Assembly (NCBI GenBank): GCA_041891195.1
Contig: JASDVE010000072.1
Span: forward strand, 1 to 37,109
Length of the DNA: 37,109 bases
Source of the DNA: Myxococcota bacterium
GTDB taxonomy: Bacteria; Myxococcota_A; UBA9160; UBA4427
Direction of reading: 5' to 3'
The position numbers and the translations under genes are program-made. Each line of letters opens with the position of its first letter. Within the stretch, counting starts at the first letter, position 1. Shown here piece by piece: positions 9,625 to 35,885 of the stretch. The notes beneath the pieces are model-generated. The model did no database searches. It was not told where the DNA came from and saw nothing but the letters and a program-made list of their open reading frames with translations.

Positions 9625-9640
9625 TGGCATCAAATTTGCT
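9625..9640 (+). promoter_or_regulatory. Sigma54 (-24/-12) type promoter TGGCAT-N5-TTGCT
   Basis: TGGCATCAAATTTGCT has exact GG-N10-GC spacing against the consensus TGGCAC-N5-TTGCW. It lies in an ORF-free intergenic region and points toward the 9841 CDS. Its extended -12 region TTGCTTTATA is shared with the promoter at 33415-33430. Confidence 0.6.
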
Positions 9641-9840: not shown

Positions 9841-11877
9841 GTGGCCGGAAAAACGAATCGTGCGGGACGATCCAAAAGCACAAGCCGTCCCCCCGCGCGC
9901 GGCGTCCGCAAGATAAAATTTCCCGACCTGCTTCCAGCCCCGAAATCCGTCCAACACGATCGCGGTGCGTTTGCCTTCGCGCGCAATATTCCGATCGTTT
10001 TGTCGCCGGGCGCAGACGAAGCAAGCAGCGCATCTGCGCACGTGCTTCGTGACGCGATCGAGCGAACGTGCAAGGTTCGCCTCCCCATTGAAGTTCACCT
10101 GCGTCGCTCGGATCTGGGTCGACATGTCGCACTTGATCATACCGGTGGGGCACCTGGGACCACATCCGATCGCTACCGAATCATCGTTTCAGACGACGTC
10201 GTTGAAGTTCGTGCCGGCGGCCCTTCGGGCCTTCGCTACGCCGTTGAAACTCTGATTCAGCTCATTCAACCTGGGGGCTCGCTTCCCGGCTGCGTGATCG
10301 AAGACGAACCCGACTTTGCGATGCGCGGCATCATGCTCGACGTGTCTCGCGGCAAGGTTCCCACCTTCGAGAGTTTGTGCGGTCTCGTCGATGTCCTGGT
10401 CAAGCTCAAGCTCAACACGCTGATGCTCTACACCGAGCACACTTTTCGATTTCGGCGTCACCCCAAAATTGGCGCAACCGATTCACCCCTCGATGGCGAA
10501 ACCATGCGCACGTTGGACGCTTATGCGCATGAACGACATGTCGAGTTGATCCCTTGCCTGCAGTCACTCGGACACATGGACCACATTCTGATGCTGCCGC
10601 AGTATCGCGACCTTGCAGAGACTGAGGTGGGTTGGACCATTGCACCGACACGCCCAGAAAGCCTCGAACTATTGCGAGACATGTACGATGAGTATCTACC
10701 GAATTTTCGCTCACGGTTGTTCAACGCCAACTGCGACGAACCTTGGGACCTCGGCAAGGGACAGTCGAAAGAACGAAGCGAAGAGCTTGGCCCGGGCGGC
10801 CTCTACCTCGAACATGTCATCGCGTTGCGCGCTCTGGCTCAACGAAGCGGTAAGCGCACCATGATCTGGGCCGACGTCGTCCACGCCCACCCCAAACGCA
10901 TCGGCGAGATCCCCAAAGACATGGTGATGCTCGACTGGGGGTACGAAGCCGAATACAGCTATGACCGCGTCTCAGTCTTTCAACAGAACAAACTCGAGTT
11001 CGCCGTCTGCCCGGGCACGTCAACGTGGAACTCGCTTTTCCCACGCGTCGAAAACAGCACAGTGAACATCAGCAACTGGGCCAAAGCGGGACTCGAGTAC
11101 GGTGCGCTCGGTTTAATTACCACGGACTGGGGCGACTTCGGCCACTACAACCTACTCGGCAATTCGTGGTTCGCATACGCGGTGACTGCCCAGCAGAGTT
11201 GGTCGGGCGCCTGCGACAACACCGCGTTCGCCCGAGCATTTGGTGCTCGCGTGTTCGGCGACCAGAGCGGTGGAGGCACAGTGGCCCGGTTGTACAAAGC
11301 CCTTGGTGCAATTCACGGCGTAGGCTTCAAGGTCTTCAATGGCTCGCCTCTCGCGTATCTGTTCTTCGACACCCTCGAAGAGAGCTACTTCATCGAGGGC
11401 TGCAAGCAGGGCGCGCTCGCACGTACCCAGAAGAAGCTCGAACGCGTGCGCAACGAAATCGAAGACGCCAAGGACTGCTTTGCGATCGAACGCGCGAGTT
11501 GGCGCGAGCTTCTGTACGCAGCGGATGCATCGCTCCATGCCGTAGACAAAGCTGTCATCGGTAGGCGTTATAACGCTTGGCGGCGTAAACCAAAGAGCCT
11601 GGACGCTCGCGCACGAAAGCGTCTCGCAATGGAGCTTCTCGAACTCGCCAAAAAGCAGAGCGCCCTGCTGACACGGTTCCGGAGACTTTGGCTTGCACGC
11701 TCCGCAATCTCGAATTTTGATTTGACGCAGGGCCGCGTAAAGCGTTCGGTCAAAAGCCTGCGGGATGCTGCGAAGTTCTTGGATCGAAACGAACCTCCGT
11801 CACCCATCGCGCGCAAACCCATCGACATTCCCGGGGTTACCGCTGCCGTACGCCGCTCTTTTGGAGCGAGCAACTAG
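9841..11877 (+). CDS. Glycoside hydrolase family 20-like protein (beta-N-acetylhexosaminidase-like)
   Basis: 678 aa with a GTG start. N-terminal LLPAPKSV, then EDEPDFAMRGIMLDVSRGKVP and LKLNTLMLYTEHTF, typical of the GH20 TIM-barrel entry. Confidence 0.75.
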   Translation: MAGKTNRAGRSKSTSRPPARGVRKIKFPDLLPAPKSVQHDRGAFAFARNIPIVLSPGADEASSASAHVLRDAIERTCKVRLPIEVHLRRSDLGRHVALDHTGGAPGTTSDRYRIIVSDDVVEVRAGGPSGLRYAVETLIQLIQPGGSLPGCVIEDEPDFAMRGIMLDVSRGKVPTFESLCGLVDVLVKLKLNTLMLYTEHTFRFRRHPKIGATDSPLDGETMRTLDAYAHERHVELIPCLQSLGHMDHILMLPQYRDLAETEVGWTIAPTRPESLELLRDMYDEYLPNFRSRLFNANCDEPWDLGKGQSKERSEELGPGGLYLEHVIALRALAQRSGKRTMIWADVVHAHPKRIGEIPKDMVMLDWGYEAEYSYDRVSVFQQNKLEFAVCPGTSTWNSLFPRVENSTVNISNWAKAGLEYGALGLITTDWGDFGHYNLLGNSWFAYAVTAQQSWSGACDNTAFARAFGARVFGDQSGGGTVARLYKALGAIHGVGFKVFNGSPLAYLFFDTLEESYFIEGCKQGALARTQKKLERVRNEIEDAKDCFAIERASWRELLYAADASLHAVDKAVIGRRYNAWRRKPKSLDARARKRLAMELLELAKKQSALLTRFRRLWLARSAISNFDLTQGRVKRSVKSLRDAAKFLDRNEPPSPIARKPIDIPGVTAAVRRSFGASN

Positions 11878-21496: not shown

Positions 21497-21919
21497 GTGA
21501 ACAAATCGGCTGAATCCTGGCTCGAACGACGGACCCGGCCCCTCGATCAGGCCAAGGACGTGGATCGGGCCCGACCGGTGTTCCAGCCGGAAGAAAACGA
21601 ACAGGCGAGTGAATTCGAGCTTCGGCGTGGCCTGACGGTTGTAGTCCTACGTGCCCGAACCCAGAAGGATTTCGCCAATCTATTGCGGGTCGAACAGCAG
21701 CCGTCTATGGTCTCGCGTCTTCTCGGTGGGGCCCATGCGGCGACCCTCGAGTCCTCGAAATTTTTATCCGCCCGACGGCCAGCGCACCGAAGATGCTGGT
21801 TGAAGCAGGCGACCGGAGTAGTGAAGTGGCGAAGACATCGCAGATCATCCGAGACAATCGGCGCAAGAAGCTTATCAAGAAGTACGCGGAAAAGCGGAAG
21901 GAACTTCGCAAGAAGTTGA
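21497..21919 (+). CDS. Possible XRE-family helix-turn-helix protein (antitoxin-like)
   Basis: GTG start. [40 protein letters not shown]...TLES resembles the XRE HTH pattern. The Arg-rich tail overlaps rpsN by 94 nt in another frame, so the true end is doubtful. Confidence 0.35.
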
Positions 21920-22131
21920 ACGACCGAAACGTTTCCGTTGAAGAGAAGCTCGAAGTTCAGGCCGAGTTCGCCAAGCTTCCGCGCAACTCGTGCCCGACCC
22001 GACTCAACCGACGCTGCGAAGTTTCGGGACGTTCAAAGTCCTACTACCGCAAGTTCGGTCTCTCCCGCATCGCACTTCGTGAGCTAGCGCTCCGTGGGCA
22101 ATTGCCGGGCGTTCGCAAGTCGAGCTGGTAA
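21826..22131 (+). CDS. rpsN: 30S ribosomal protein S14, long cysteine-less (C-) form
   Basis: GTG at 21826 follows [24 protein letters not shown]...[28 protein letters not shown] is the canonical S14 sequence without a CxxC zinc ribbon. It is not visibly part of a large ribosomal protein operon. Confidence 0.9.
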
Positions 22132-22164
22132 TAAGTCGAGCTGGTCGTAAGACGAGCTGGTCGT
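22117..22164 (+). repeat. 16-bp x3 tandem repeat spanning the rpsN stop codon
   Basis: AAGTCGAGCTGGTAAT / AAGTCGAGCTGGTCGT / AAGACGAGCTGGTCGT. The first copy encodes the S14 C-terminus KSSW plus the stop codon. Confidence 0.9.
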
Positions 22165-22231
22165 CAGTTCGTAGTCACGGCGGTTCGCTCGATGCGATCC
22201 AAAGTTCAGCACAAGATTTAGGAATGGAAAC

Positions 22232-22477
22232 ATGAAGCCCGATACGCATCCCGACTACCACAAAGTCATCTTCGTCGACTCCGCTTCCGGCGATGAATGG
22301 ACGAGCCGCTCCACCATGACCTCGGCAGAAACTCGCGACGTCGACGGGGAGAATATCCCCGTCATCAAGCTCGAAATTTCGGCCGCCAGCCATCCTTTCT
22401 GGACGGGCACCATGCGCGAACTCGATGCCGACGGAAAGATCGACCGCTTTCGCAGGCGGTACGGCGGCAAGAAGTAG
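22232..22477 (+). CDS. rpmE2: 50S ribosomal protein L31 type B (cysteine-less paralog form)
   Basis: MKPDTHPDYHKVIFVD...SHPFWTG...RFRRRYG matches the YkgM-type L31. It has no CxxC motif. Confidence 0.9.
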   Translation: MKPDTHPDYHKVIFVDSASGDEWTSRSTMTSAETRDVDGENIPVIKLEISAASHPFWTGTMRELDADGKIDRFRRRYGGKK

Positions 22478-24082: not shown

Positions 24083-24479
24083 TGTAAATGCCACATTATC
24101 GATTCCGAGATTATATCCCGAAGGCAAAAGGCAGTTGTCGCACCGGTTCGTGTCGGCACGACGAACGACCTCGGCGCAGTGCGCGAAAGTTCTTGACAAT
24201 TTGGGGGCCGAGGCGCCGAGAAATTCGTAGTCGTCGTAACACAGTGCGGAGAACCAAGAAAAATCGACGGGGGGAATCTACATCGTGACCACGCGTGGGT
24301 GGCACGCGCGCTAGTGAAAGTAGTCGCCCCGCATTGGCACTGGGAAAACCAAAGCTACGTGAAATTAATCTGCAACGTTGGCTGCGTCATAAGTTTCGTT
24401 ACGTTGACACTGCCGACCTGAGGAACGTGACGGCTGCATCGGCTACACTCTCGCGCGGGGGCCGAGCAGGAGTAATTTG

Positions 24480-26489
24480 ATGGTAAATGCCCGAGACGAC
24501 GTAGTCGGCAATATGGCAGGCTCGGTGATCGCGAGGATCCCGGCGCCCACGCCAGGACTGAAACTTCCGGTTCTGCCCGAGCGCACCGACCGACTCCTCA
24601 CATTGCTGTCCAGCATGGACGCGTATGTCACCGAAGCAGACAGCGCCCCCCGAACGTTATTCGTAAGCCCCGGGGTTTCTGAAGTTACCGGGTACTCACC
24701 TGAAGAAGTGATCGCCGGTGATTGTCTCGTCATTCACGAAGATGACCATCACCTACTCGCCAACGGTGCCATTGCGCTCGCAAAGTACGGCCGTGCCTTT
24801 AGCTGTATCATTCGGATGAAGCACAAGCGTGGTGATTGGCTTTGGATTGAGATCAGCTCGCTGTCGTCTTACGAGACTTCGGAAGGCGGGTACCGGTCAA
24901 TGTCTCTTAACCGGGACGTGACTCGCTTGATGAACACCCAGCGCGACCTCGCGCAGAGTGAAGAGCGTTACCGCGCCGTGTCGGAGATGACCCGGGACTT
25001 GATCACCGAAAGCACCACCGACTCCCAGACGGTCTACGTCAGCCCCGGTGTTTCGGAAGCACTCGGTTGGTCCCGAGAAGAACTCGCAGCACACGGGCCG
25101 TATGAGAAGGTTCATCCCGACGACGTGGAGCGAGTTCGACGGGTCACTGAGGAATCCTTGGCGTCAGGTCAGCCAAGTCATTATGAGGCATTTCGAATCT
25201 TCGCCAAGAACGGCCAATGCCTGTGGTTCGAAACTTCTGCGATGATCTATCAGCGAAGCGACGGCGAGACCCGCATCCTTTCGGTCTCACACAACATCAC
25301 CGAACAACGCCGGGAACAAGAGGACCGGCGCGAGCTCGAAGAGCAGATGGTTCGCGCGCAAAAACTGGAAAGCCTCGGCGTCATGGCGGGCGGGATCGCA
25401 CATGACTTCAACAACTTGCTCACACCAATCCTTGGCGAAGCAAGCTTGGTACTCGAAGATCTGCCTCAAGACTCTCCGTTGCGGGAGCGAATGCTAAAGA
25501 TTCGGCATGCAGCCGAGCGTGCGGCGTCGCTGACAAACCAGATGCTGTCCTATGCGGGCAGGGGCCCGGTACATCTAGAGCGACTCGACCTCAGTCAACT
25601 CGTCGACGAGATGGGGCGACTTTTCGAGTCCGCAGTCTCAGGCAAGACCGTGCTCGACTTTGACCTTACGCCGGCAATGTTGCTGATCGAGGCAGACTCA
25701 TCGCAGATCAGTCAGGTTGTGATGAACTTGATCACCAACGCGAGTGAATCACTTCCGGACGGTGAAGGAAAGATCACTGTTCGTACGGGTGGCGTGGATC
25801 TATTGGCGCCTCCGAACAAGTCGGTCTTCGCCGAACGACTTGAGGCCGGCCCTCATATCTATGTCGAGGTGTCAGATACCGGGTGCGGGATGGACGCGGA
25901 CACGATCACGAAGATCTTCGATCCATTCTTCACGACTAAATTCACGGGCCGCGGACTTGGGCTCGCAGCGGTTGCTGGGATCGTGCGAGGGCATCAAGGT
26001 GCACTCGAAATTCGATCCGAGCCGGGTAAAGGCTCGGTCGTCAGGGTGCTGTTTCCCGTATCGCAAGGAGCCGAACCGCTAGGCCAGCTGACAAGTATCG
26101 GTGGCAAAAACACTTGGACGGCTGACGCGATGGTGTTGGTGATCGACGACGACGAAGGTATGAGAGACTTGGCGACCGACATTTTATCGCGCGCTGGCCT
26201 CGAAGTGAGAGCAGCAGCGAACGGTCGCGACGGCCTCGAAATTTTCCGCGCTCATGCAAATGAAATCAATCTCGTGCTGCTTGACCGCACAATGCCCACC
26301 ATGAGCGGCTACGAGACCTTTCAAGAAATTCGCAAGATCCACCCCAGCACCCCAGTCGTCCTTGTGAGCGGCTATTCAGAAGAGCGTGCTGCAGCCGAAC
26401 TCGCCGGCGCCGGACTCGCGGGTTTCTTACATAAGCCATTCTTGCCCGAAACACTTCTAGATCTCGTGAAGGCGTCGATCGAGGGCTAA
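24480..26489 (+). CDS. Hybrid sensor histidine kinase (PAS-PAS-HisKA-HATPase-receiver)
   Basis: ATG lies 7 nt after AGGAG. It has two PAS-like modules, H-box GGIAHDFNNLLT, HATPase motifs (DTGCGMD, GRGLGLA) and a C-terminal receiver (VLVIDDDEGM...LLDRTMPTMSG). Confidence 0.85.
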   Translation: MVNARDDVVGNMAGSVIARIPAPTPGLKLPVLPERTDRLLTLLSSMDAYVTEADSAPRTLFVSPGVSEVTGYSPEEVIAGDCLVIHEDDHHLLANGAIALAKYGRAFSCIIRMKHKRGDWLWIEISSLSSYETSEGGYRSMSLNRDVTRLMNTQRDLAQSEERYRAVSEMTRDLITESTTDSQTVYVSPGVSEALGWSREELAAHGPYEKVHPDDVERVRRVTEESLASGQPSHYEAFRIFAKNGQCLWFETSAMIYQRSDGETRILSVSHNITEQRREQEDRRELEEQMVRAQKLESLGVMAGGIAHDFNNLLTPILGEASLVLEDLPQDSPLRERMLKIRHAAERAASLTNQMLSYAGRGPVHLERLDLSQLVDEMGRLFESAVSGKTVLDFDLTPAMLLIEADSSQISQVVMNLITNASESLPDGEGKITVRTGGVDLLAPPNKSVFAERLEAGPHIYVEVSDTGCGMDADTITKIFDPFFTTKFTGRGLGLAAVAGIVRGHQGALEIRSEPGKGSVVRVLFPVSQGAEPLGQLTSIGGKNTWTADAMVLVIDDDEGMRDLATDILSRAGLEVRAAANGRDGLEIFRAHANEINLVLLDRTMPTMSGYETFQEIRKIHPSTPVVLVSGYSEERAAAELAGAGLAGFLHKPFLPETLLDLVKASIEG

Positions 26490-26566: not shown

Positions 26567-28012
26567 TTGCGAGCCGCGGACCCGCGAAGCCTGGGATTGC
26601 TGCGCATCGCGATCGGCAGCATGCTGATCGCCGACGTGCTGCGTCGGCTACCCGACTTCGCTCATTTTTATACGAATGCGGGAATGCTGCCAAACCACAC
26701 AACACTGTGGCAGCCGCTGCGCCCGCATGCGATTTCTTTCTTCTTCACCCTGTCGACACCCGCCGAAGCGCTGCTTGGGTTGCTTGCCTGCTTGGGCGTG
26801 TTCGTGTGCTTCACCCTCGGTTGGCGAACGCGACTTTTTCAGATGCTCGCGCTGGTCTGCCTCATTAGCCTGCACGGGCGTGTCACGATGCTCGAAAACG
26901 GCGGGGACATCGTACTCAGCAACTTGCTGTTCTGGTCGACCTTCCTGCCACTCGGACGACGCTTTTCCCTCGACGCAAAAATTGCCGCAGAGACGAATCC
27001 AAACTTCGTGCACGACACGCGGCCCATCACATCACTTGCCGTGCTCGCGATCATTCTTCAGTTCGGCGTCATCTATCTCTTCAACGCTTTCAACAAGTAC
27101 GGCGTTGAATGGCTTGACGGCTCAGCCGTCCACTACGCAATGCACCAAGACCGAATCGCGACCGCGCTCGCAGTTGCCGCCCGAGAGAATCTCCCGCTCG
27201 CCGGCCTTAAAGCCATGACGTGGCTTGCAATCGCGACCGAGTACGTCCTCGCAGCCTTGATCTTGACGCCATTCTTAAGACGCTACGCGCACCGCGTCGT
27301 TTTGCTCACGGCGCCTGGTCTCCACCTTTCATTCGCGCTTTTCCTCAACCTCGGCCTGTTTTCGTATGCAATGTTGGCTTGGCTCCCCTTGCTACTTACG
27401 AGTGAAGACTGGGACTGGATCGCTCGACGCCGTGGGCAGGAACCCGAGGTTGTGAATTCGGACTCAGACGAATGCAGTTCACCTGCCTGGACTGTATTGC
27501 TGCGCGAAGCCGCCGTAGTTGCGTTTCTCATCGCATGTGGGTTCCAACTATTGAACGAAAACCCATTTACTCCAGAACGTTTCCGGCTCGAGAAACCCGC
27601 AATTGTACAAGCGATGATCGGCTACCCGCGGTTGCGGCAAGGCTGGAGCATGTTCGCGCCTCGCTCGCCAATCAACGAGACGCTGCTCGTCGTCGATGCA
27701 CGCACTGTCGACGGCAGGCACGTCGACCCCATCGCGTGGGCGTCACGCGGAACCGACGAGGTGATCCGCGACCACATCCCGAAGGCCCTCGGCTTTAGTC
27801 AGTTTTGGGTCAGCATCGTCGAACGCATGCCCGGCCACGCGCCCTATCATGGTGCGCTACGCGACTGGATCCTGCGTCACCACGAACGCACCGGGAACGA
27901 CAATGACGCAGTCGTGCGTTTTGAGGTCGTAAACCTGATCGCTGAAAGCCCGCATCTTGGCGAAGACAAGGACTACCCCGTCAGCGAGCAGATGGTCTTG
28001 CGGTATCCGTAA
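26567..28012 (+). CDS. HTTM domain (vitamin K-dependent gamma-carboxylase-like transmembrane domain) protein
   Basis: TTG start follows GGGGGAG. N-terminus SLGLLRIAIGSMLIADVL plus multiple TM helices fit the HTTM-type pattern. Confidence 0.65.
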   Translation: MRAADPRSLGLLRIAIGSMLIADVLRRLPDFAHFYTNAGMLPNHTTLWQPLRPHAISFFFTLSTPAEALLGLLACLGVFVCFTLGWRTRLFQMLALVCLISLHGRVTMLENGGDIVLSNLLFWSTFLPLGRRFSLDAKIAAETNPNFVHDTRPITSLAVLAIILQFGVIYLFNAFNKYGVEWLDGSAVHYAMHQDRIATALAVAARENLPLAGLKAMTWLAIATEYVLAALILTPFLRRYAHRVVLLTAPGLHLSFALFLNLGLFSYAMLAWLPLLLTSEDWDWIARRRGQEPEVVNSDSDECSSPAWTVLLREAAVVAFLIACGFQLLNENPFTPERFRLEKPAIVQAMIGYPRLRQGWSMFAPRSPINETLLVVDARTVDGRHVDPIAWASRGTDEVIRDHIPKALGFSQFWVSIVERMPGHAPYHGALRDWILRHHERTGNDNDAVVRFEVVNLIAESPHLGEDKDYPVSEQMVLRYP

Positions 28013-28123: not shown

Positions 28124-28405
28124 TTACTTCTGCAACCGCTTGAGCACGCGGCGCTTCAGGCGAAGGCCCTCTTCGGCAAGGTCCTTGTCCGCAGTCTTGA
28201 TCAAGAAGGCGTCGAGCCCACCCTTCTTCTGCACCGTGCGAAGAGCGCGCACGGAAACCTGAAGAGACACGTCGCATCCCAAAACGTCAGAAGGCAAGCT
28301 CACCTTCTGGATGTTGGGCATGAAGGTCCGGTTGGTCCGGCGCTTACTGTGCGAGACGTTGTGCCCAAACTGAACTTTCTTACCGGTAAGCGCGCATTGA
28401 CCCAT
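28124..28405 (-). CDS. rpmB: 50S ribosomal protein L28
   Basis: [34 protein letters not shown] is the canonical L28 N-terminus. GAGGGA lies upstream of the ATG. Confidence 0.9.
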
Positions 28406-28484: not shown

Positions 28485-28578
28485 GTGTTGTGACGGTGTT
28501 GTTACGGTGTTGTTACGGTGGTGTTACGGTGGTGTTACGGTGGTGTTACGGTGGTGGTGATGTGACGGTGTTGTTGCG
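28485..28578. repeat. Tandem array of about 8 copies of an 11-bp unit (GTGKTGTTACG)
   Basis: Units at 28485, 28496, 28507 (GTGTTGTKACG), 28518, 28529, 28540 (GTGGTGTTACG x3 perfect), a 17-nt degenerate unit at 28551, and 28568 (GTGTTGTTGCG). The array lies 80-170 bp upstream of the rpmB start and downstream of pspA. Confidence 0.95.
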
Positions 28579-28775: not shown

Positions 28776-29510
28776 CTAGTGAGAAGCCAGTATTGGCTCA
28801 TTTTGAGCCGGAATTATGCGAGCGGCCATTTCGCGTTTGAGTTCCGCGAGCTCGCTCTTGGCCGCGTCTCGACGGGCTTGGTCGCGGAAACCTCGAAGCT
28901 GTCCACGGACCTCTGTGCCGCCGATTTCACGGTCGAGTTCGCTCTCGGCGCCCATCCGCTCGATCTGTTCTCGTACGCCTTCGAGGGCATCCATTTCGGC
29001 CTCAACTGAGAGCCCTTCCATCGCGGCCTGCAGTCGGCGGCGGGCCTTGGCATTCGCGAGGGTGGCGATCATGCGGCCCTTTTCGCGTACCAGCGACCGA
29101 ATTTCTTCGCGAAATCTGACGAGATTCGCCTTGGCTTCGTCCGCCTGCACCCGGACAGTGCCGAACTCCGTTTCGGCCCTTTCGAGATCTTCAAACAACG
29201 ACTGTTTGCGCGCGATCAAGGTCAGGCAGGCTTCTTCGTCGTCGCGCGAGAGCGAGCGCCGGGTTTCGTCATGCAGGCGGGCGATCTCGGCACGTCGCTC
29301 GGCGATTTCGGCGTCGAGCTTGCCGCGCATATATAGAATCCCCGCCACGGCGTCTTTGAGTTCCCGGTACTGCTTCAGTCGTCCACGAATCGCTTGCTCG
29401 TAGACGGCTTCGGGACTTTCGAGCTCCCGGTCGCGCACCCATACCGAGAAGATGCCTCGCAACAGGCTACGCATTCGTCCAAACACGCTTGCGGATTTGG
29501 TTCCACTCAT
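28776..29510 (-). CDS. pspA: PspA/IM30 family membrane-stress protein
   Basis: 244-aa coiled-coil protein. The N-terminal amphipathic segment RMRSLLRGIFSVWV...PEAVYEQAIR and the overall pattern resemble PspA/Vipp1. Its ATG overlaps the upstream stop codon (ATGA). Confidence 0.8.
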   Translation of the reverse strand: MSGTKSASVFGRMRSLLRGIFSVWVRDRELESPEAVYEQAIRGRLKQYRELKDAVAGILYMRGKLDAEIAERRAEIARLHDETRRSLSRDDEEACLTLIARKQSLFEDLERAETEFGTVRVQADEAKANLVRFREEIRSLVREKGRMIATLANAKARRRLQAAMEGLSVEAEMDALEGVREQIERMGAESELDREIGGTEVRGQLRGFRDQARRDAAKSELAELKREMAARIIPAQNEPILASH

Positions 29511-30949
29511 TGGTTTTCCCCTTTGGTTTGTTGGCTCGCGGGCGCTGAACCAAGCGACTCGGAACGGAGCCCAAGTTCGCGGATCTTCTGTTGCAGGCTT
29601 TGTCGCACCATCCCGATGTCCCGAGCGGTTTGCGACACATTGCCGTCGTTCTTTCGCAGCGCGCTCACCAAGAACTCGCGCTCAAAGTTTTCGATCATCG
29701 ACTTTTTGGCTTCCGAAAAGGGAAGCTTTCCGTTGGGTTCTGAGGCAAAGCTCGGTGTCGCCGCGAGCCGTGTGATCGCACTCGCACCAAGCTGCAAGTC
29801 GTCTTCTTCGATCTCGTCGCCGCTCGAAAGCACCGCCGCTTGTTCGAGCAAGTTGCCGAGCTCGCGCACGTTGCCGGGCCAGTCGTGTTGCATGAGACGC
29901 GCCATGGCACTGGGGGAAAGTTCTTTTTTTTCGCGCCCCAAGCGTTCGGCGACGCGCTCGAGAAACCGCGCACAAAGAGAGGGAAGGTCTTCGCGTCGTT
30001 CGCGCAGGGGGGGAAGCTCCACCTGCACGACCTTCAAACGGTAATAGAGGTCTTCGCGAAAGCGCCCTTCCTTAACTTCTTCTTCTAGATTGCGATGAGT
30101 TGCCGCGACGACACGGACGTCGACTTCGACACCGTCGCTGCCGCCAACGCGTTCAAACTTTTGTTCTTGCAAGACACGCAAAACTTTGGCTTGGGTTTCG
30201 GACGCCATGTCGCCAATTTCGTCCAGAAAAATCGTGCCGCCGTCTGCAAGTTCGAAGCGACCTTCACGCCGCTGATCTGCGCCCGTGAACGCGTTTTTTT
30301 CATGACCAAACAATTCGCTTTCAACGAGTTCCTGGTTGATCGCTGCGCAATTGACCGCGATGAATGGGCGGCTACGACGACCGCTCGTGTTGTGAATCGC
30401 CTGGGCGACGAGTTCCTTTCCGGTGCCACTTTCGCCGCGAATCAAAACGGTGAGGTCCGTCTCCGCGACTTTTTGAATCGTCTCGTAGACTTTTCGCATT
30501 CCGGCGCTTGTCCCAATGATGTTTTCGAAACCGTACTCGCGCTGAACGCGTTCGAGCAGCAGCCGATGTTCCCGTTCGAGTCGGTATCGATCGATGGCCC
30601 GACGTACCACCACGCGGAGCTCGTCATTGTCAAAAGGCTTCGGGATGTAGTCTTCGGCGCCCGCCTTCATCGCGACTACGGCGATCTTTTCAGAACCATG
30701 TGCGGTGATCATGACGACGGCCGTTTCGAGGCGCAGTTCTTTGGCCCGCTTGAGCACGTCCATCCCGGTGGCCCCGCGCCCAAGCGCCAAGTCGGTCAGC
30801 ACGAGATCGAAGCTTTGCTTTTCGAGGGCTGCGAGTGCCTTCTCACCGTCTTCGGCGAGCTCCACCTCATAACCTTCACGCTTGAGCAGGCCGTTAAGTG
30901 CTACACGGATCGCGCTTTCATCTTCGACGACCAAGATACGAGGCTTCAC
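29507..30949 (-). CDS. NtrC-family sigma54-dependent response regulator (receiver-AAA+-HTH)
   Basis: Receiver domain (ILVVEDE...LTDLAL), Walker A GESGTGKE, GAFTGA-loop variant ESELFGHEKNAFTGA and a C-terminal Fis-type HTH (NVSQTARDIGMVRQSLQQKI). The GTG start overlaps the upstream stop codon (GTGA). Confidence 0.9.
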   Translation of the reverse strand: MKPRILVVEDESAIRVALNGLLKREGYEVELAEDGEKALAALEKQSFDLVLTDLALGRGATGMDVLKRAKELRLETAVVMITAHGSEKIAVVAMKAGAEDYIPKPFDNDELRVVVRRAIDRYRLEREHRLLLERVQREYGFENIIGTSAGMRKVYETIQKVAETDLTVLIRGESGTGKELVAQAIHNTSGRRSRPFIAVNCAAINQELVESELFGHEKNAFTGADQRREGRFELADGGTIFLDEIGDMASETQAKVLRVLQEQKFERVGGSDGVEVDVRVVAATHRNLEEEVKEGRFREDLYYRLKVVQVELPPLRERREDLPSLCARFLERVAERLGREKKELSPSAMARLMQHDWPGNVRELGNLLEQAAVLSSGDEIEEDDLQLGASAITRLAATPSFASEPNGKLPFSEAKKSMIENFEREFLVSALRKNDGNVSQTARDIGMVRQSLQQKIRELGLRSESLGSAPASQQTKGENQ

Positions 30950-32187
30950 AGGCGATCTCCTTGGAAGGCCGACGGGCTTCCCTTCGGCAAACTCAAAATA
31001 AATTCGGCACCACTTCCGGGGACCGCACTGACTTCGATCTTTCCGCGGTGGGCGTCAACGAGCTTCTTCGTGATCGCAAGCCCAAGCCCGGTGCCGTTGC
31101 GATTGGCGGTATAGAAAGGCGTGAAAATCTGATCCTGAATTTCTTGATCGATCCCTAGCCCGTTATCCCGAACACGAACCCAGACCTCGTTTCCGGCGAG
31201 GTTTTCGCCCATCGAGACATGCACCACCGGCTCGGTCACTTGCGCCTCGGCGAGGGCGTCGAGGGCGTTCCCAACCAAGTTGATCATGACTCGCCGAAGC
31301 TTTTCGGCGTCGCCGTGCATTTCGCCGTCGCAGTCAAACTCGCGCTCGATCGCGATGCCTTCGCGTTCACTACGTTCACGAAACGTTTCAAGAGCCGAGT
31401 CGAGCACGTCCCGCATCAGAAGCGGAGCGCGGTGGAGTTCTTCTTCGCGACCAAACTTGAGCAGGTGAGAAATTGAGCGCTCAACACGTTCGAGTTCGAC
31501 CAACGCAACCTGGGCGTATTCTTCGTTGTCGATCGAATTGGGGTCTTCGCGCATCTGTTGAAGCAGACTCTTCGCCGCTGTGATGGGGTTGCGAATTTCG
31601 TGGGCAACCGAGGCGGACAACACTTCAAGCGACTGCGCGTGGTCGTCCGCAAGCTCAACTCGTTCACGGCTCACGTTGGCGTGAACATGACGTTCGACTT
31701 GTTCTTCAACGAGGCGTTCTTTCAAGCGCGGCTCGACCATCTGCGAAAAGAAGCGTCGCCCGTGGCGGAAGAACCAGTAAAGGATCGCGGCGAAACCAAG
31801 CCACGGCACAAAGACAAGCAGCAGCAATACGATGATGGCCTGCTTCGCGGTCGAGATGAGGAGCTCTGCCCGGTCTTCTGCGTCCGTTCGCGCGTCTTGA
31901 TATTCTTGTTCTTCAGAGCTCAGAACTCGTGTGTGCGGTCGCGCGATGTCTCCATGGTCGTCGTCCGATTCGAAGAGCTCGCCTTCGTCGTGGCGCGAGG
32001 GGTTTCGACGACGGAGACGACGCTTGCCGCGGATTTTCGACTGCACTTTGGCCTTTGCCTCCGACCGCGCCTTGTCCCAGTTCGACTTCAGGTGATCCGA
32101 CATGCGCGCGTCCTCCGGCCTTTGGGTCATCCCAGCCGTCTGAAGAGTGTCGAGGAGAAACTTGTTGTATCGCAGCGTTGTCTTCAT
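30946..32187 (-). CDS. Sensor histidine kinase with a charged N-terminal region and one long hydrophobic segment
   Basis: H-box SASVAHEIRNPITAAKS and HATPase motifs (NLVGNALDAL, DNGLGID, GTGLGLA). No sizeable extracytoplasmic domain is evident. The ATG overlaps the upstream stop codon (ATGA). Confidence 0.85.
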   Translation of the reverse strand: MKTTLRYNKFLLDTLQTAGMTQRPEDARMSDHLKSNWDKARSEAKAKVQSKIRGKRRLRRRNPSRHDEGELFESDDDHGDIARPHTRVLSSEEQEYQDARTDAEDRAELLISTAKQAIIVLLLLVFVPWLGFAAILYWFFRHGRRFFSQMVEPRLKERLVEEQVERHVHANVSRERVELADDHAQSLEVLSASVAHEIRNPITAAKSLLQQMREDPNSIDNEEYAQVALVELERVERSISHLLKFGREEELHRAPLLMRDVLDSALETFRERSEREGIAIEREFDCDGEMHGDAEKLRRVMINLVGNALDALAEAQVTEPVVHVSMGENLAGNEVWVRVRDNGLGIDQEIQDQIFTPFYTANRNGTGLGLAITKKLVDAHRGKIEVSAVPGSGAEFILSLPKGSPSAFQGDRL

Positions 32188-33278
32188 GACTTCGCTACCG
32201 AGCCGGCGTGCGCCTTCGGGAAAGTAAGCAGAAATTCTGCACCCGAGTCATTGCCGTCGACCACTTCGAGGCTGCCGCCGTGGGACTCCACAACCTTCTG
32301 CGACAACGCCAGTCCCAACCCAGTCCCGTTCGATTTGGTGGTGAAAAAGGGATTAAAGATGCTCTGACGAACTGCCATGTCCATGCCGGGGCCGTTGTCG
32401 CGAATGCGCAGCCAGACTTCGGTGCTCGCCAGGTTCTCCCCAGCCAAGATCACAACACACGGCGTTGGGGTTGCGGACTCTTCGAGGGAGTCGAGTGCGT
32501 TGCGGAGCAAGTTGATCACGACACGACGCAGCTTTTCGGTGTCGCCCTGCATTTCGCAGATGGCCCCGGTTTCAACGTCGACGTTTACGCCAAGTGCGTC
32601 GACACGGTCGCGCATAGATGCAAGGGCCGAGTCGATAATGTTGGGCAGGAACAACGGCTCGAAACAAAAGTCTTCTTCGCGGGCGTACTTGAGCAAGTGA
32701 GAGATCGAGCGTTCGACACGGTCGAGTTCTTCGAGTGCCACCCGGGCAAACTGAATGTTGTCCCCAGAAACGGGATCTTCACCCATCTGTTGCACCAGGC
32801 TCTTGGCTGCGGTGACGGGGTTGCGAATTTCGTGAGCGATCGATGCCGAAAGATCTTCGAGCGATCGCGCATTGGCGCTCTGTGCGACGTCGAGTTTTTT
32901 CGCACCCTGCTCAACGTGTCGGTCCATCTCATCGGCGATCCAACGTTCGCGCAGCCGGGGTGCAGCCAACGCCGCCACGTAGTGAAGTGCGAGGCCAATA
33001 CCCCAGGACAACGCGACGATGATCGTGGCGCGAAGGCTGCGGCTACTGACGAGAATCAGAGTCAACACCGACCCATAAGCGGTCAAATGAATGAGCCAAC
33101 CAACCCGGCGGTTCGCACGACTCTGCGCAGTGCGGTAGCGCCGCTCTTCGAGGGTCCATTCGCGCTTCTTTCTGTCCCGGCCCCAGGCGACCGTTTTACG
33201 ACGCGGTCGTCGCGACGCACCGTGCGAGTCAAAGCGATCGGGAAAACCTTGCTCTCGATTTTGCTTGCGGTGACTCAT
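32184..33278 (-). CDS. Sensor histidine kinase with a 2TM-type N-terminal membrane module (paralog of the downstream kinase)
   Basis: ATG at 33278 follows GGGGGGAGAG. Two adjacent hydrophobic helices (VGWLIHLTAYGSVLTLILV / IIVALSWGIGLALHYVAAL) precede H-box SASIAHEIRNPVTAAKS. The catalytic core aligns almost residue for residue with the next kinase. Confidence 0.85.
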   Translation of the reverse strand: MSHRKQNREQGFPDRFDSHGASRRPRRKTVAWGRDRKKREWTLEERRYRTAQSRANRRVGWLIHLTAYGSVLTLILVSSRSLRATIIVALSWGIGLALHYVAALAAPRLRERWIADEMDRHVEQGAKKLDVAQSANARSLEDLSASIAHEIRNPVTAAKSLVQQMGEDPVSGDNIQFARVALEELDRVERSISHLLKYAREEDFCFEPLFLPNIIDSALASMRDRVDALGVNVDVETGAICEMQGDTEKLRRVVINLLRNALDSLEESATPTPCVVILAGENLASTEVWLRIRDNGPGMDMAVRQSIFNPFFTTKSNGTGLGLALSQKVVESHGGSLEVVDGNDSGAEFLLTFPKAHAGSVAKS

Positions 33279-33414
33279 CGCTCTCCCCCCGACACCGCCA
33301 GATTGATGGCCGTCGGTGCCGCCACTCGAGACGCCGCACTCCCATCGAGGGAAGGAGTGAAAGGCGTCGTCACAGTGCGGTCGTCGTCCATAAGCCAGCA
33401 TTCCCCACTATAAA

Positions 33415-33430
33415 GCAATGACCATGCCGA
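33415..33430 (-). promoter_or_regulatory. Sigma54 (-24/-12) type promoter CGGCAT-N5-TTGCT upstream of the kinase-kinase-activator-pspA operon
   Basis: The minus strand reads tCGGCATGGTCATTGCTTTATAG with exact GG-N10-GC spacing. It shares the extended -12 region TTGCTTTATA with the 9625 promoter. It implies a leader of about 125 nt before the 33278 start. Confidence 0.55.
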
Positions 33431-33552
33431 AAATAAAAAATTAGCAATGCCGGACACTTAGCTTCAGGCGTGGGCCGACGATTGGGCATTCCCTGCGTTC
33501 AGTGCAGTAGAGATCATGCACCATCCACGCAGCTTGCACGACGCCGAACTTC

Positions 33553-33586
33553 CATCGCGTCAACGAATCATTCAATTGACGCGATG
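33553..33586. promoter_or_regulatory. Perfect 11-bp inverted repeat CATCGCGTCAA-N12-TTGACGCGATG, candidate upstream activator site
   Basis: Read directly. It is located 125-155 bp upstream of the minus-strand sigma54-type promoter, with an AT-rich tract (33430-33450) in between. Confidence 0.4.
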
Positions 33587-34165
33587 CAACGACAAGCTGA
33601 ACACAGGTCTCCAGATATAGAGGGACGCCCGGGGAGCATCACCTCAACCCGGACGGCCTCTACTCTCCAGTTACCGAATTTCCCGCGTCTCGCCGTAGGC
33701 CTCGGGGGCGAGACCACCGACCCTCAAACGCTCGCTTGGCGCTTCACCAATGGACCCGTGTGGCTATAAGCTCGGCGGCTGCATAAGGCAACCGACCGAA
33801 ATCCCTTCCCAGGTCCGAGCCATCAGAATTCGCTGCTTTTCATCAACATAATCGCGCTGGTGAACGGCTGCGAAACGAATGACAAGGGCCACCCCGGGTA
33901 CATCAGTAGAAGAAGTCAATCCAGCAACGGGTCGGACCGTTGACCCGCGAAGGCAGAATACGGACGGGTGTGCGTAAAAGTCAATCAATTAATCACCGGT
34001 AACTCGAATTGGACCGCCCGGTTCACGACGGGACGTTTTATGTCGCGTTGCTATCATGCGCGCCGAAATGCAGGAGTGGGGGCTTGTGCTTGAGACCAAA
34101 GCAAAAATTGGTTGATAGTCGTGAGCGAGCAAAGCGCAATCAGTTGAGCCGCAACAGGAGCAGAT

Positions 34166-34726
34166 GTGACGGATATAGACACAGCAGCGACCACGCAAAC
34201 CGACGAAGAAACCGCCTACCACCAAGCGGGGCAAGCAGTCAATTGCGTCACCCTATTTGGCGCGCGGGTCGTAAAGAACTTGGGCTTGTCAGGGGGCCGG
34301 GTCACCGATTGGAAGTTCGAAACTTATTCGCGCTTGCCGGTTCCGCTTTCGTGCCGGCCGCCGAGTCATAAGCGCGGCGAAGATCGCAAACCGATCGAGG
34401 TTGAAGGCATCGTCGACGCACACGGCATCCTCACCTATTCGGGAAGCGCTGCGGTGTACATGCACTATCGCGATCAAGGTCGCGCCGAAGCGTTCGACTA
34501 CCAGAACGATCATCTCGGCACGCGCGAAGCACTTGCAAAACTCGCGAGTAGCATTGGCGTTGAACGCCCAGCAGATAAGTTTTACGAAACGTACTGGAGC
34601 GAAGCGAGTCGGCTCCTTACGGCAGACTGGAACGCCGTCGAACGCGTGGCAGATGGTTTGCTCACGTTGCGCTCGCTCAATGGCAACCGCATTGACGCGT
34701 TGGTGCTCGGCGAAGAACTTCAGTAG
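34166..34726 (+). CDS. FtsH/peptidase M41-like domain protein with a degenerate metal site (HEXXH changed to HQAGQ)
   Basis: GTG lies 5 nt after AGGAG. ETAYHQAGQAV aligns to FtsH AYHEAGHAL. The downstream segments YSGSAAVYMHY and NDHLGTREALAKLA resemble the M41 helical region. There is no AAA+ domain and no TM segment. Confidence 0.5.
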   Translation: MTDIDTAATTQTDEETAYHQAGQAVNCVTLFGARVVKNLGLSGGRVTDWKFETYSRLPVPLSCRPPSHKRGEDRKPIEVEGIVDAHGILTYSGSAAVYMHYRDQGRAEAFDYQNDHLGTREALAKLASSIGVERPADKFYETYWSEASRLLTADWNAVERVADGLLTLRSLNGNRIDALVLGEELQ

Positions 34727-34973: not shown

Positions 34974-35885
34974 ATGAGAATCTGGATCGATACCGACATC
35001 GGAACGGACGTAGACGACGCTTTGACATTGGCGTACACGCTGCGGCATCCAGGCTTTGATGTCGTGGGAATTTCAACTGTGTTTGGCGATGTGGACCTGC
35101 GAAGCCAGATCGCCGTCGAGTTACTCCATATCTCGGGTGTGCCCGAACACCGCGACGTACCCGTTGTCACGGGTCTCGGTGTTCCAATCTCGCCGCATCG
35201 CCACGGTCTGATGTTTGGTCATGAAGGCGAGGGGCTGATCGTCGATGCGGAACCGAAGCGCAAAATCGAAGAAGAGCCGGACGCCGGTGCCAAGCTAGAT
35301 CGGCTTGCAGCCGCACTCGAGATCGCGCGGCCCGACGTCATCCTGGCCATCGGTCCGCTCACGAATCTGGCCGCGTTGTTGAATGCGGGTGTATCGCTGC
35401 CTCACCTCGCCATCATGGGTGGCAAGCTGCAAGACGTGATGCTGCCCGGCATGCTTCCCAACATTGCGGAATGGAATTGGTTCTGCGATCCGGTGTCGGT
35501 ACAGGTGGTGCTCGACGCAAAGCACGCGACGCTGCCGCGAATCATTCCGGCAGAAGTCACTTTCGCGACACAGCTCGACGACGGCGACGTCTCGCTTCTG
35601 TCTGAAGGCGATGCGCTTGCACAAATGTTGTCGAAGCTCTCCACCGTATGGCTCGATGTTCTACGAACATCCATCAGCAAAGCGCCACCACGGATCGCCC
35701 TTCACGACCCTCTTACCGCGGCCACTCTGGTTGAGCCGGGTCTGTGTCACTTCGAAGAGCGTCGTATCGAAGTCGATGGCGTTGGGGCATCACAGCCAGC
35801 AAGGGGTCCAGACAATATCGAAGCCGCCATCGACGTTGACAACGCCGCTTTGCGTGATCATTTGATGAAAACTTGGCTTCCATGA
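34974..35885 (+). CDS. Nucleoside hydrolase (IUNH family)
   Basis: The N-terminal fingerprint IWIDTDIGTDVDDALTLAY matches DxDxxxDD. 303 aa. Confidence 0.85.
   Translation: MRIWIDTDIGTDVDDALTLAYTLRHPGFDVVGISTVFGDVDLRSQIAVELLHISGVPEHRDVPVVTGLGVPISPHRHGLMFGHEGEGLIVDAEPKRKIEEEPDAGAKLDRLAAALEIARPDVILAIGPLTNLAALLNAGVSLPHLAIMGGKLQDVMLPGMLPNIAEWNWFCDPVSVQVVLDAKHATLPRIIPAEVTFATQLDDGDVSLLSEGDALAQMLSKLSTVWLDVLRTSISKAPPRIALHDPLTAATLVEPGLCHFEERRIEVDGVGASQPARGPDNIEAAIDVDNAALRDHLMKTWLP

Follow-up and report, generated by a model that had tools for sequence, protein, structure and literature searches.

How is the synthesis of a PspA-family protein controlled when its gene lies at the end of an operon that also encodes two sensor kinases and an activator equipped with a phospho-receiver? 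The question is raised by a contig of a Myxococcota bacterium of the UBA4427 lineage (assembly GCA_041891195.1, contig JASDVE010000072.1; the whole stretch of 37,109 nucleotides is referred to here as the window), in which four genes follow one another on the minus strand. They encode an intramembrane-type histidine kinase (HK1; the longest open reading frame (ORF) in the ORF list and its translation spans 32184-33401), a paralogous histidine kinase (HK2; 30946-32187), an NtrC-type sigma-54 activator composed of a receiver, an AAA+ module and a Fis-type helix-turn-helix (HTH) (29507-30949) and, as the last cistron of the cassette, a PspA/IM30 protein, an ESCRT-III-like membrane-remodelling protein (28776-29510). 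The original prediction, made from the letters of the sequence alone, had described these genes as translationally coupled, and the overlaps can indeed be read directly in the sequence as ATGA at 32184-32187, GTGA at 30946-30949 and ATGA at 29507-29510. The explanation that we consider probable is that of a self-contained, positively autoregulated two-component sigma-54 circuit with PspA as its constant effector; the wiring of the operon as such appears likely to be right and is well supported by comparative evidence.

That evidence comes in the first place from gene order. In total 1117 relatives of the PspA protein were found, and 92 related loci, drawn from named genomes, from contigs with more distant PspA relatives and from metagenome contigs, were surveyed by tblastn with the four products as queries. 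The identity of PspA to the window copy ranged from 96% down to 49% across these loci. An activator gene directly precedes pspA in all 48 loci that extend more than 1.6 kb upstream of pspA, and a kinase gene directly precedes the activator in 34 of 34; among the loci with more than 3 kb of upstream sequence, 20 carry two kinases and four carry one. The proposed order of one or two kinases, enhancer-binding protein and PspA has thus withstood a neighbourhood survey, and to judge from these comparisons the arrangement is conserved in every informative related locus, far beyond what would be expected by chance. The named source genomes are metagenome-assembled genomes from seawater and sediment that are assigned to the Myxococcota or to the "Deltaproteobacteria"; two loci that are labelled as belonging to other phyla are probably binning or naming artefacts. 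Conservation ends with pspA, as nothing is conserved downstream of it in 74 loci, including any small membrane protein.

The second line of evidence concerns the DNA ahead of the first kinase gene. A sigma-54 promoter was sought as a -24/-12 element of the GG-N10-GC type matching TGGCACG-N4-TTGCW, at a conserved position and accompanied by an upstream activator site, and all three were found. The predicted promoter, CGGCATGgtcaTTGCT, lies at 33414-33429 on the minus strand, which would place the transcript start near 33403. Within the window alone the pattern has little meaning, as its 22 matches compare with 16.6 expected and are not significant; the promoter assignment is therefore carried by conserved position. 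An element agreeing with the consensus at 10 or more of 12 positions is found just ahead of the first kinase gene in 24 of the 24 loci with enough upstream sequence, and the family consensus is cGGCACG-N4-TTGCTCT.

A predicted enhancer accompanies this element. The palindrome gTGCAG-N8-CTGCAc sits 54-113 bp upstream of the promoter across the family, and its instance in the window, TGCATGATCTCTACTGCA, occupies 33503-33520 on the minus strand, 91 bp upstream of the -24/-12 element. The core of the palindrome, TGCA-N10-TGCA, occurs 12 times in 148 kb of sequence, and 10 of these occurrences fall within the 200-bp stretches before the promoters (54-101 bp upstream), for which about 1.6 would be expected by shuffling, a figure that applies to the whole set. 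The core was found in 24 of 24 loci, often in two copies that are 33-34 bp or 19-20 bp apart. The palindrome together with its position is the signature expected of an enhancer-binding-protein site. Since this conserved pair of predicted promoter and enhancer drives the operon that encodes the activator itself, the circuit reads as positively autoregulated.

A second candidate for the enhancer, a perfect 11-bp inverted repeat (CATCGCGTCAA-N12-TTGACGCGATG, at about 33553-33586, some 140 bp upstream of the -24/-12 element), was rejected in favour of TGCA-N10-TGCA, the repeat being kept, with one mismatch, only in the near-identical loci L001 and L013. Two further perfect matches to TGGC-N7-TTGCW are present on the plus strand of the window. 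One (9625-9640) precedes a GH20-family glycosidase gene (9841-11877) by about 200 bp; the other (34647-34662), which falls inside or after an ORF at 34166-34726, precedes a nucleoside hydrolase gene (34974-35885) by about 310 bp. Both are without TGCA-N10-TGCA and could be chance matches or sigma-54 promoters that answer to other activators. The gene for sigma-54 itself, rpoN, was not found among the window ORFs scanned; in Myxococcus xanthus sigma-54 is present and apparently essential, as attempts to delete rpoN failed (PMC4641369).

The position of the promoter bears on where HK1 begins. With the transcript start predicted near 33403, an ATG at 33401 would be almost leaderless. A GGAGG-type ribosome-binding site, GGGGGGAGAG, is located 4 nt ahead of the ATG at 33278, and both this site and the MSHR start that follows it are kept in locus L015, where the reading frame upstream of MSHR is not. 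For these reasons the start of HK1 is taken as 33278; methionine 42 of the longest ORF is probably the true first residue, giving a probable extent of 32184-33278 and leaving 33279-33402 as a probable 5' leader of about 125 nt (or 41 N-terminal codons, if the longest ORF is used).

What might the two kinases sense? Both match HisKA and HATPase_c in Pfam, and the H, N, G1, F and G2 boxes are intact in both; HK1 also matches the 2TM family (27.4 bits, cut-off 24.8). The original prediction had described two paralogous sensor kinases with near-identical catalytic cores and different membrane modules. They are clear paralogs and their modules do differ, each being conserved among orthologs; the cores are not near-identical, as HK1 and HK2 share 54% of residues in the dimerisation/phosphotransfer (DHp) and catalytic (CA) domains, against 45% overall and 25% in the N-terminal modules. 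In agreement with the same prediction, neither kinase has an extracytoplasmic sensor domain, the loop of HK1 being only about six residues long. Intramembrane-sensing kinases have two transmembrane helices joined by a linker of fewer than 25 residues and no other sensor domain, and HK1 conforms to this definition. It has a basic N-terminal tail (20 K+R versus 7 D+E in 59 residues) and a hairpin in which a first helix (TM1, about 20 residues), a T/S-R-S-x-R loop (about six) and a second helix (TM2, about 22) follow one another, the hydrophobic helices covering residues ~100-118 and ~125-147 in the numbering of the long ORF. After TM2 a helix continues directly into the DHp domain, neither a HAMP nor a PAS domain intervening.

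HK2 departs from this definition in having a single, proline-broken hydrophobic stretch of 24-29 residues. Behind a charged N-terminal region of about 110 residues comes one uncharged stretch, about 24 residues long in the window copy and 26-29 (counted by eye) in orthologs; its central proline is conserved, and in most orthologs it has basic residues on either flank. An AlphaFold2 model (mean pLDDT 80.9, and 85-93 through the hydrophobic segment) places one helix at 91-126, a break at V127/P128 and a second helix at 128-214 that continues into the DHp domain. In this model the arms on either side of the break would measure 11-13 residues each, about half a bilayer. A Foldseek search with the model matched the kinase core only (HK853, ZraS and BceS among others). 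From the basic residues on both flanks, the kinase domain that has to be cytoplasmic and the long, charged N-terminus lacking a signal peptide, we infer that a re-entrant hairpin of the cytoplasmic leaflet is likelier for this segment than a single span.

The history of the pair is recorded in a maximum-likelihood tree, in which the position-1 kinases form one clade (92/90 support) apart from the position-2 kinases, the two groups having mirrored topologies. The tree thus points to one old duplication followed by co-divergence, each copy having kept its own membrane module. Three loci with a single kinase (L008, L022 and L035) have kinases that nest in the position-2 clade, from which it follows that HK1 was lost there; the kinase of L007 splits off close to the base of the tree, and its membrane module is of the 2TM type.

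It could be argued that the cue has nothing to do with the membrane, and that the kinases instead respond to a metabolite or a metal, as AtoS and ZraS do, with PspA serving as a general protectant or accessory regulator and the main targets lying elsewhere in the genome. The family matches are in keeping with such a scheme, as the nearest NCBIfam families are AtoS and ZraS for the kinases and NtrC, AtoC, NtrX and ZraR for the activator, all of them below the equivalog cut-offs. Against it stand the lack of any periplasmic or cytoplasmic ligand-binding domain in either kinase, the fact that PspA is the only constant non-signalling gene of the cassette, and the finding that in 148 kb the enhancer motif is essentially confined to the operon promoter. 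Taken together these observations make a non-membrane cue unlikely.

The activator raises a different question, namely whether it is switched by phosphorylation or, as is the case for PspF, by binding of PspA. Its Pfam matches are Response_reg (100 bits), Sigma54_activat (251 bits), AAA_lid_14 and HTH_8. The receiver residues D10, D53, T82 and K104 are all present, and the AAA+ domain has a Walker A motif (GESGTGKE), a Walker B motif (IFLDE) and an L1 loop that reads NAFTGA. A receiver, a sigma-54 AAA+ module with a loop of the GAFTGA type and an HTH_8 domain are the parts that make up an NtrC-type response-regulator enhancer-binding protein, and all of them are in place. In 51 orthologs the sigma-54 contact loop (30278-30295 in the window) reads GAFTGA in 44, GSFTGA in four, SAFTGA in two and NAFTGA in one. 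The protein is not an NtrC ortholog, as it scores 469 against a cut-off of 558.6 for TIGR01818, and it scores 411 against 760 for ZraR.

In E. coli, PspA docks on the W56 loop of PspF, where Y51, L52 and W56 make up a hydrophobic patch (termed the YLW patch; PMC3791423). The PspF(1-255) reference sequence used for the comparison matches PDB entry 2vii at 100%, and the loops align without gaps, the activator reading H-N-T-S-G-R-R-S-R-P-F-I-A and PspF H-Y-L-S-S-R-W-Q-G-P-F-I-S. The three positions of the patch are thus N, T and R in the window activator, and they are polar or charged in 51 of 51 operon activators (N/S/D/T at the first, T/R/A at the second and R/K/S at the third). The structural residues of the same loop, H50, R55, P59 and F60, are conserved. 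The absence of the patch and the completeness of the receiver argue, as far as sequence can, that the activator is switched by phosphorylation and not by docking of PspA in the manner of PspF. If PspA does feed back on the circuit, the kinases would be a likelier target than the activator.

The alternative, that the logic of the classical Psp system has been kept, with PspA holding the AAA+ domain of the activator inactive and the kinases and the receiver adding only a second, modulating input, draws on the unbroken adjacency of the two genes (48 of 48 loci), on the 45% identity between the AAA+ domain and PspF, and on the description of PspA and PspF as a co-evolving functional core in proteobacteria (PMC3041696). 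The polar or charged residues at the docking positions, within a loop whose structural residues are otherwise conserved, speak against it, as does the presence of a complete receiver, the domain through which NtrC-type proteins are usually regulated in cis. Moreover, the activator is nearer to the structures of NtrC1, NtrX and ZraR (about 345 bits) than to that of PspF (203 bits). We therefore regard retention of the classical logic as improbable and keep to phosphorylation as the switch.

The identity of the effector is less contentious. The fourth ORF had been named PspA from its translation, and it matches the PspA_IM30 profile (PF04012) with 76.6 bits against a cut-off of 33.9, residues 8-227 aligning with positions 1-217 of 220. 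A profile built from its orthologs matches the Vipp1/PspA structures 6zvr and 7o3w over residues 8-238. As the score for the enterobacterial PspA equivalog TIGR02977 is only 20.1 bits against a cut-off of 242.95, the protein is best classed as a divergent member of the PspA/IM30 family and not as an ortholog of enterobacterial PspA.

That pspA is expressed with the genes upstream of it had also been proposed, and what bears on this is consistent with co-expression: across 73 loci no independent pspA promoter was seen, and contigs from RNA libraries cross two of the gene junctions at low depth. These contigs come from seawater and vent metatranscriptomes and match pspA, the activator gene, HK2 and the HK1 leader. 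One (32151-32308) crosses the HK1/HK2 junction without mismatches, and another (29324-29558, about 97% identical) crosses the junction between the activator gene and pspA. They are weakly consistent with a single transcript. A scan for intrinsic terminators found none after pspA. The possibility that pspA has a promoter of its own, and stands behind the activator gene through functional linkage without co-transcription, can appeal to gaps of more than 100 nt before pspA in eight of the 73 loci and to a sigma-70 promoter scan that stayed at background and would miss promoters of this type in Myxococcota, and is nonetheless very unlikely in view of the 4-nt overlap in the window, the overlaps in 26 of 73 loci and median gap of 17 nt, the lack before pspA in the 73 loci of any -24/-12-like element above 8/12 or any enhancer site, and the RNA-library contig that spans the junction.

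How does this cassette relate to the systems that are known to control PspA-family proteins? Enterobacterial Psp, itself an inducible membrane-stress response, shares with it a PspA/IM30 effector, a sigma-54 promoter and an AAA+ enhancer-binding protein with a Fis-type HTH. There, however, pspF is divergent from pspABCDE, and PspF, which lacks a receiver, is held under trans control by PspA docked on its YLW patch, the sensors being PspB and PspC. The activator of the cassette, by contrast, carries a receiver and no YLW patch, and its operon opens with two kinase genes and closes with pspA. The contrast with E. coli that had been drawn from the sequence alone, namely a receiver on the activator, a pspA gene that is not divergent from it and no pspB or pspC nearby, accordingly holds. 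No PspB or PspC domain was found in the Pfam-scanned ORFs around the operon or in the larger ORFs of the window, the small distant ORFs not all having been scanned.

The closest parallel in logic is LiaFSR-LiaIH of Bacillus subtilis, in which an autoregulated two-component system has the PspA homolog LiaH as its main output and LiaS as its kinase, which is of the intramembrane-sensing type and has no extracytoplasmic domain (PMC9239133, PMC11237479). A two-component system, an intramembrane-sensing kinase, a PspA-homolog output and autoregulation are thus common to both. LiaR, however, consists of a receiver and a winged HTH and has no AAA+ sigma-54 module (PMC11237479). Moreover, Lia needs LiaF and LiaI, whereas the regulator here is an AAA+ sigma-54 activator with a sigma-54 output, there are usually two kinases, and no LiaF, LiaI or Toastrack partner is adjacent to the cassette. 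ZraPSR of E. coli and Salmonella, which is among the best family matches, is likewise an envelope-stress two-component system with a sigma-54 regulator of the NtrC type. ZraS has a periplasmic sensor domain, and its partner and effector ZraP is a divergently encoded periplasmic chaperone. In the cassette, by contrast, the effector is the cytoplasmic PspA, and all scores are below the equivalog cut-offs. The cassette, in short, has a Lia-like logic with a sigma-54 output like that of PspF or ZraR, and it lacks defining features of both Psp and Lia.

Surveys of phage-shock-protein systems describe PspF with PspABC, Lia-type and other two-component systems whose regulators are of the receiver-HTH type, and NtrC-like regulators with ACT and PAS domains in Gammaproteobacteria (PMC9239133, PMC11237479). 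An operon that runs from one or two kinases through a receiver-AAA+-HTH activator to PspA is not described in either survey, and a literature search found nothing closer. In the sigma-54 regulome of Desulfovibrio, psp genes are placed under a receiver-less, PspF-type regulator (PMC4641369).

The cassette is chromosomal and not part of an island, as the flanking genes (valS, an acyl-CoA thioesterase gene, the genes for S14/L31 and L28 and a DUF3604 gene) are of the housekeeping type and partly syntenic with locus L012. Distant relatives (L010 and L012) likewise carry genes for the ribosomal proteins S14, L31 and L28 close to the cassette (21826-22477 in the window). The commonest gene after pspA is rpmB, found there in roughly a third of the related loci, the neighbour otherwise being variable. 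In the window, rpmB (ribosomal protein L28; Pfam 85 bits) lies at 28124-28405 on the same minus strand, about 370 nt downstream of pspA; its RNA-library depth is 20-45, and it probably has its own promoter. Between the two genes, at 28485-28578, is a tandem array with an 11-bp period made up of CACCACCGTAACA-like units. Convergent to the operon are two plus-strand genes, one for a hybrid PAS-HisKA-HATPase-receiver kinase (24477-26489) and one for an HTTM-domain membrane protein (26567-28012); neither is kept beside the cassette in other loci, and both are probably unrelated to it.

The ORF-free gap upstream of the operon holds an RNA of a different kind. Adapter-ended metatranscriptome contigs cover only the 170-180 nt or so at 33758-33936, at depths of 462 and 142, compared with 2-6 for the operon, and this stretch represents a small RNA of very high abundance. 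Its conservation (89%) is limited to the closest relatives, L001 and L013; it is neither a tRNA nor a tmRNA, and has no match in Rfam; neither Rfam nor ARAGORN gave a match anywhere in the window. On either strand the minimum-free-energy fold is stable (-58 and -67 kcal/mol, raw values not set against shuffled sequence). It could be a 6S-like RNA or a novel small RNA.

This returns us to how a two-component circuit would place PspA under the control of the membrane that it protects. The kinases would sense a perturbation in or at the cytoplasmic membrane by way of their 2TM or short-hairpin modules, autophosphorylate on the histidine of the HEIRNP motif and pass the phosphate to D53 of the activator receiver. 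The phosphorylated activator would then oligomerise on the enhancer and remodel sigma-54 RNA polymerase at the promoter, and transcription of the whole operon would amplify the signalling proteins and lead to the production of PspA, which would bind and stabilise the damaged membrane. The signal in this scheme would be membrane stress.

Several points weigh against this account or some part of it. The stimulus is deduced only from the identity of the effector and the lack of sensor domains, and the family matches to AtoS/ZraS and NtrC/AtoC/ZraR, being below their cut-offs, are uninformative as to the signal. The sigma-54 contact loop of the window activator, with NAFTGA in place of GAFTGA, is a peculiarity of its own lineage. 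A sigma-70-type internal promoter may serve pspA in the few loci with the long gaps. The RNA contigs have a depth of only 2-6 and are unstranded, and one of them (33389-33649) extends over the promoter, pointing to DNA carry-over or read-through.

A more daring extension of the membrane-stress scheme concerns the division of labour between the two kinases. The proline-broken, basic-flanked segment of HK2, too short for two crossings, may be a re-entrant hairpin of the cytoplasmic leaflet that reports lipid-packing or curvature stress, the cue that PspA recognises, while the 2TM kinase would report a transmembrane property and PspA, on leaving the membrane or being recruited to it, would act back on the basic tails of the kinases. 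We hold this to be a doubtful proposal. If true, it would describe a complete sense-amplify-repair loop of the inner membrane that operates without a partner of the PspB/PspC or LiaF/LiaI type, as well as an input module of a new, membrane-sensing kind for histidine kinases.

Proteins of the PspA/IM30/Vipp1 family are the bacterial ESCRT-III-like membrane-repair machinery, and the control of their synthesis is understood in three model wirings: PspF with PspBC, LiaFSR, and ClgR. The cassette would be a fourth, in which a phosphorelay input is paired with a sigma-54 output. What is new here, as read from the compared loci, is the conserved promoter and enhancer, the duplication history of the kinases and the loss of the PspF-type docking patch. 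The findings are of interest for the fields of envelope stress, sigma-54 and two-component signalling, and the cassette is compact (a promoter, an enhancer and three or four genes) and thus simple to move into another host and test. Its conservation among the abundant, uncultured Myxococcota of the sea is very high, and it sets side by side two minimal membrane-embedded kinase input modules whose only plausible job would be to read the state of the bilayer.

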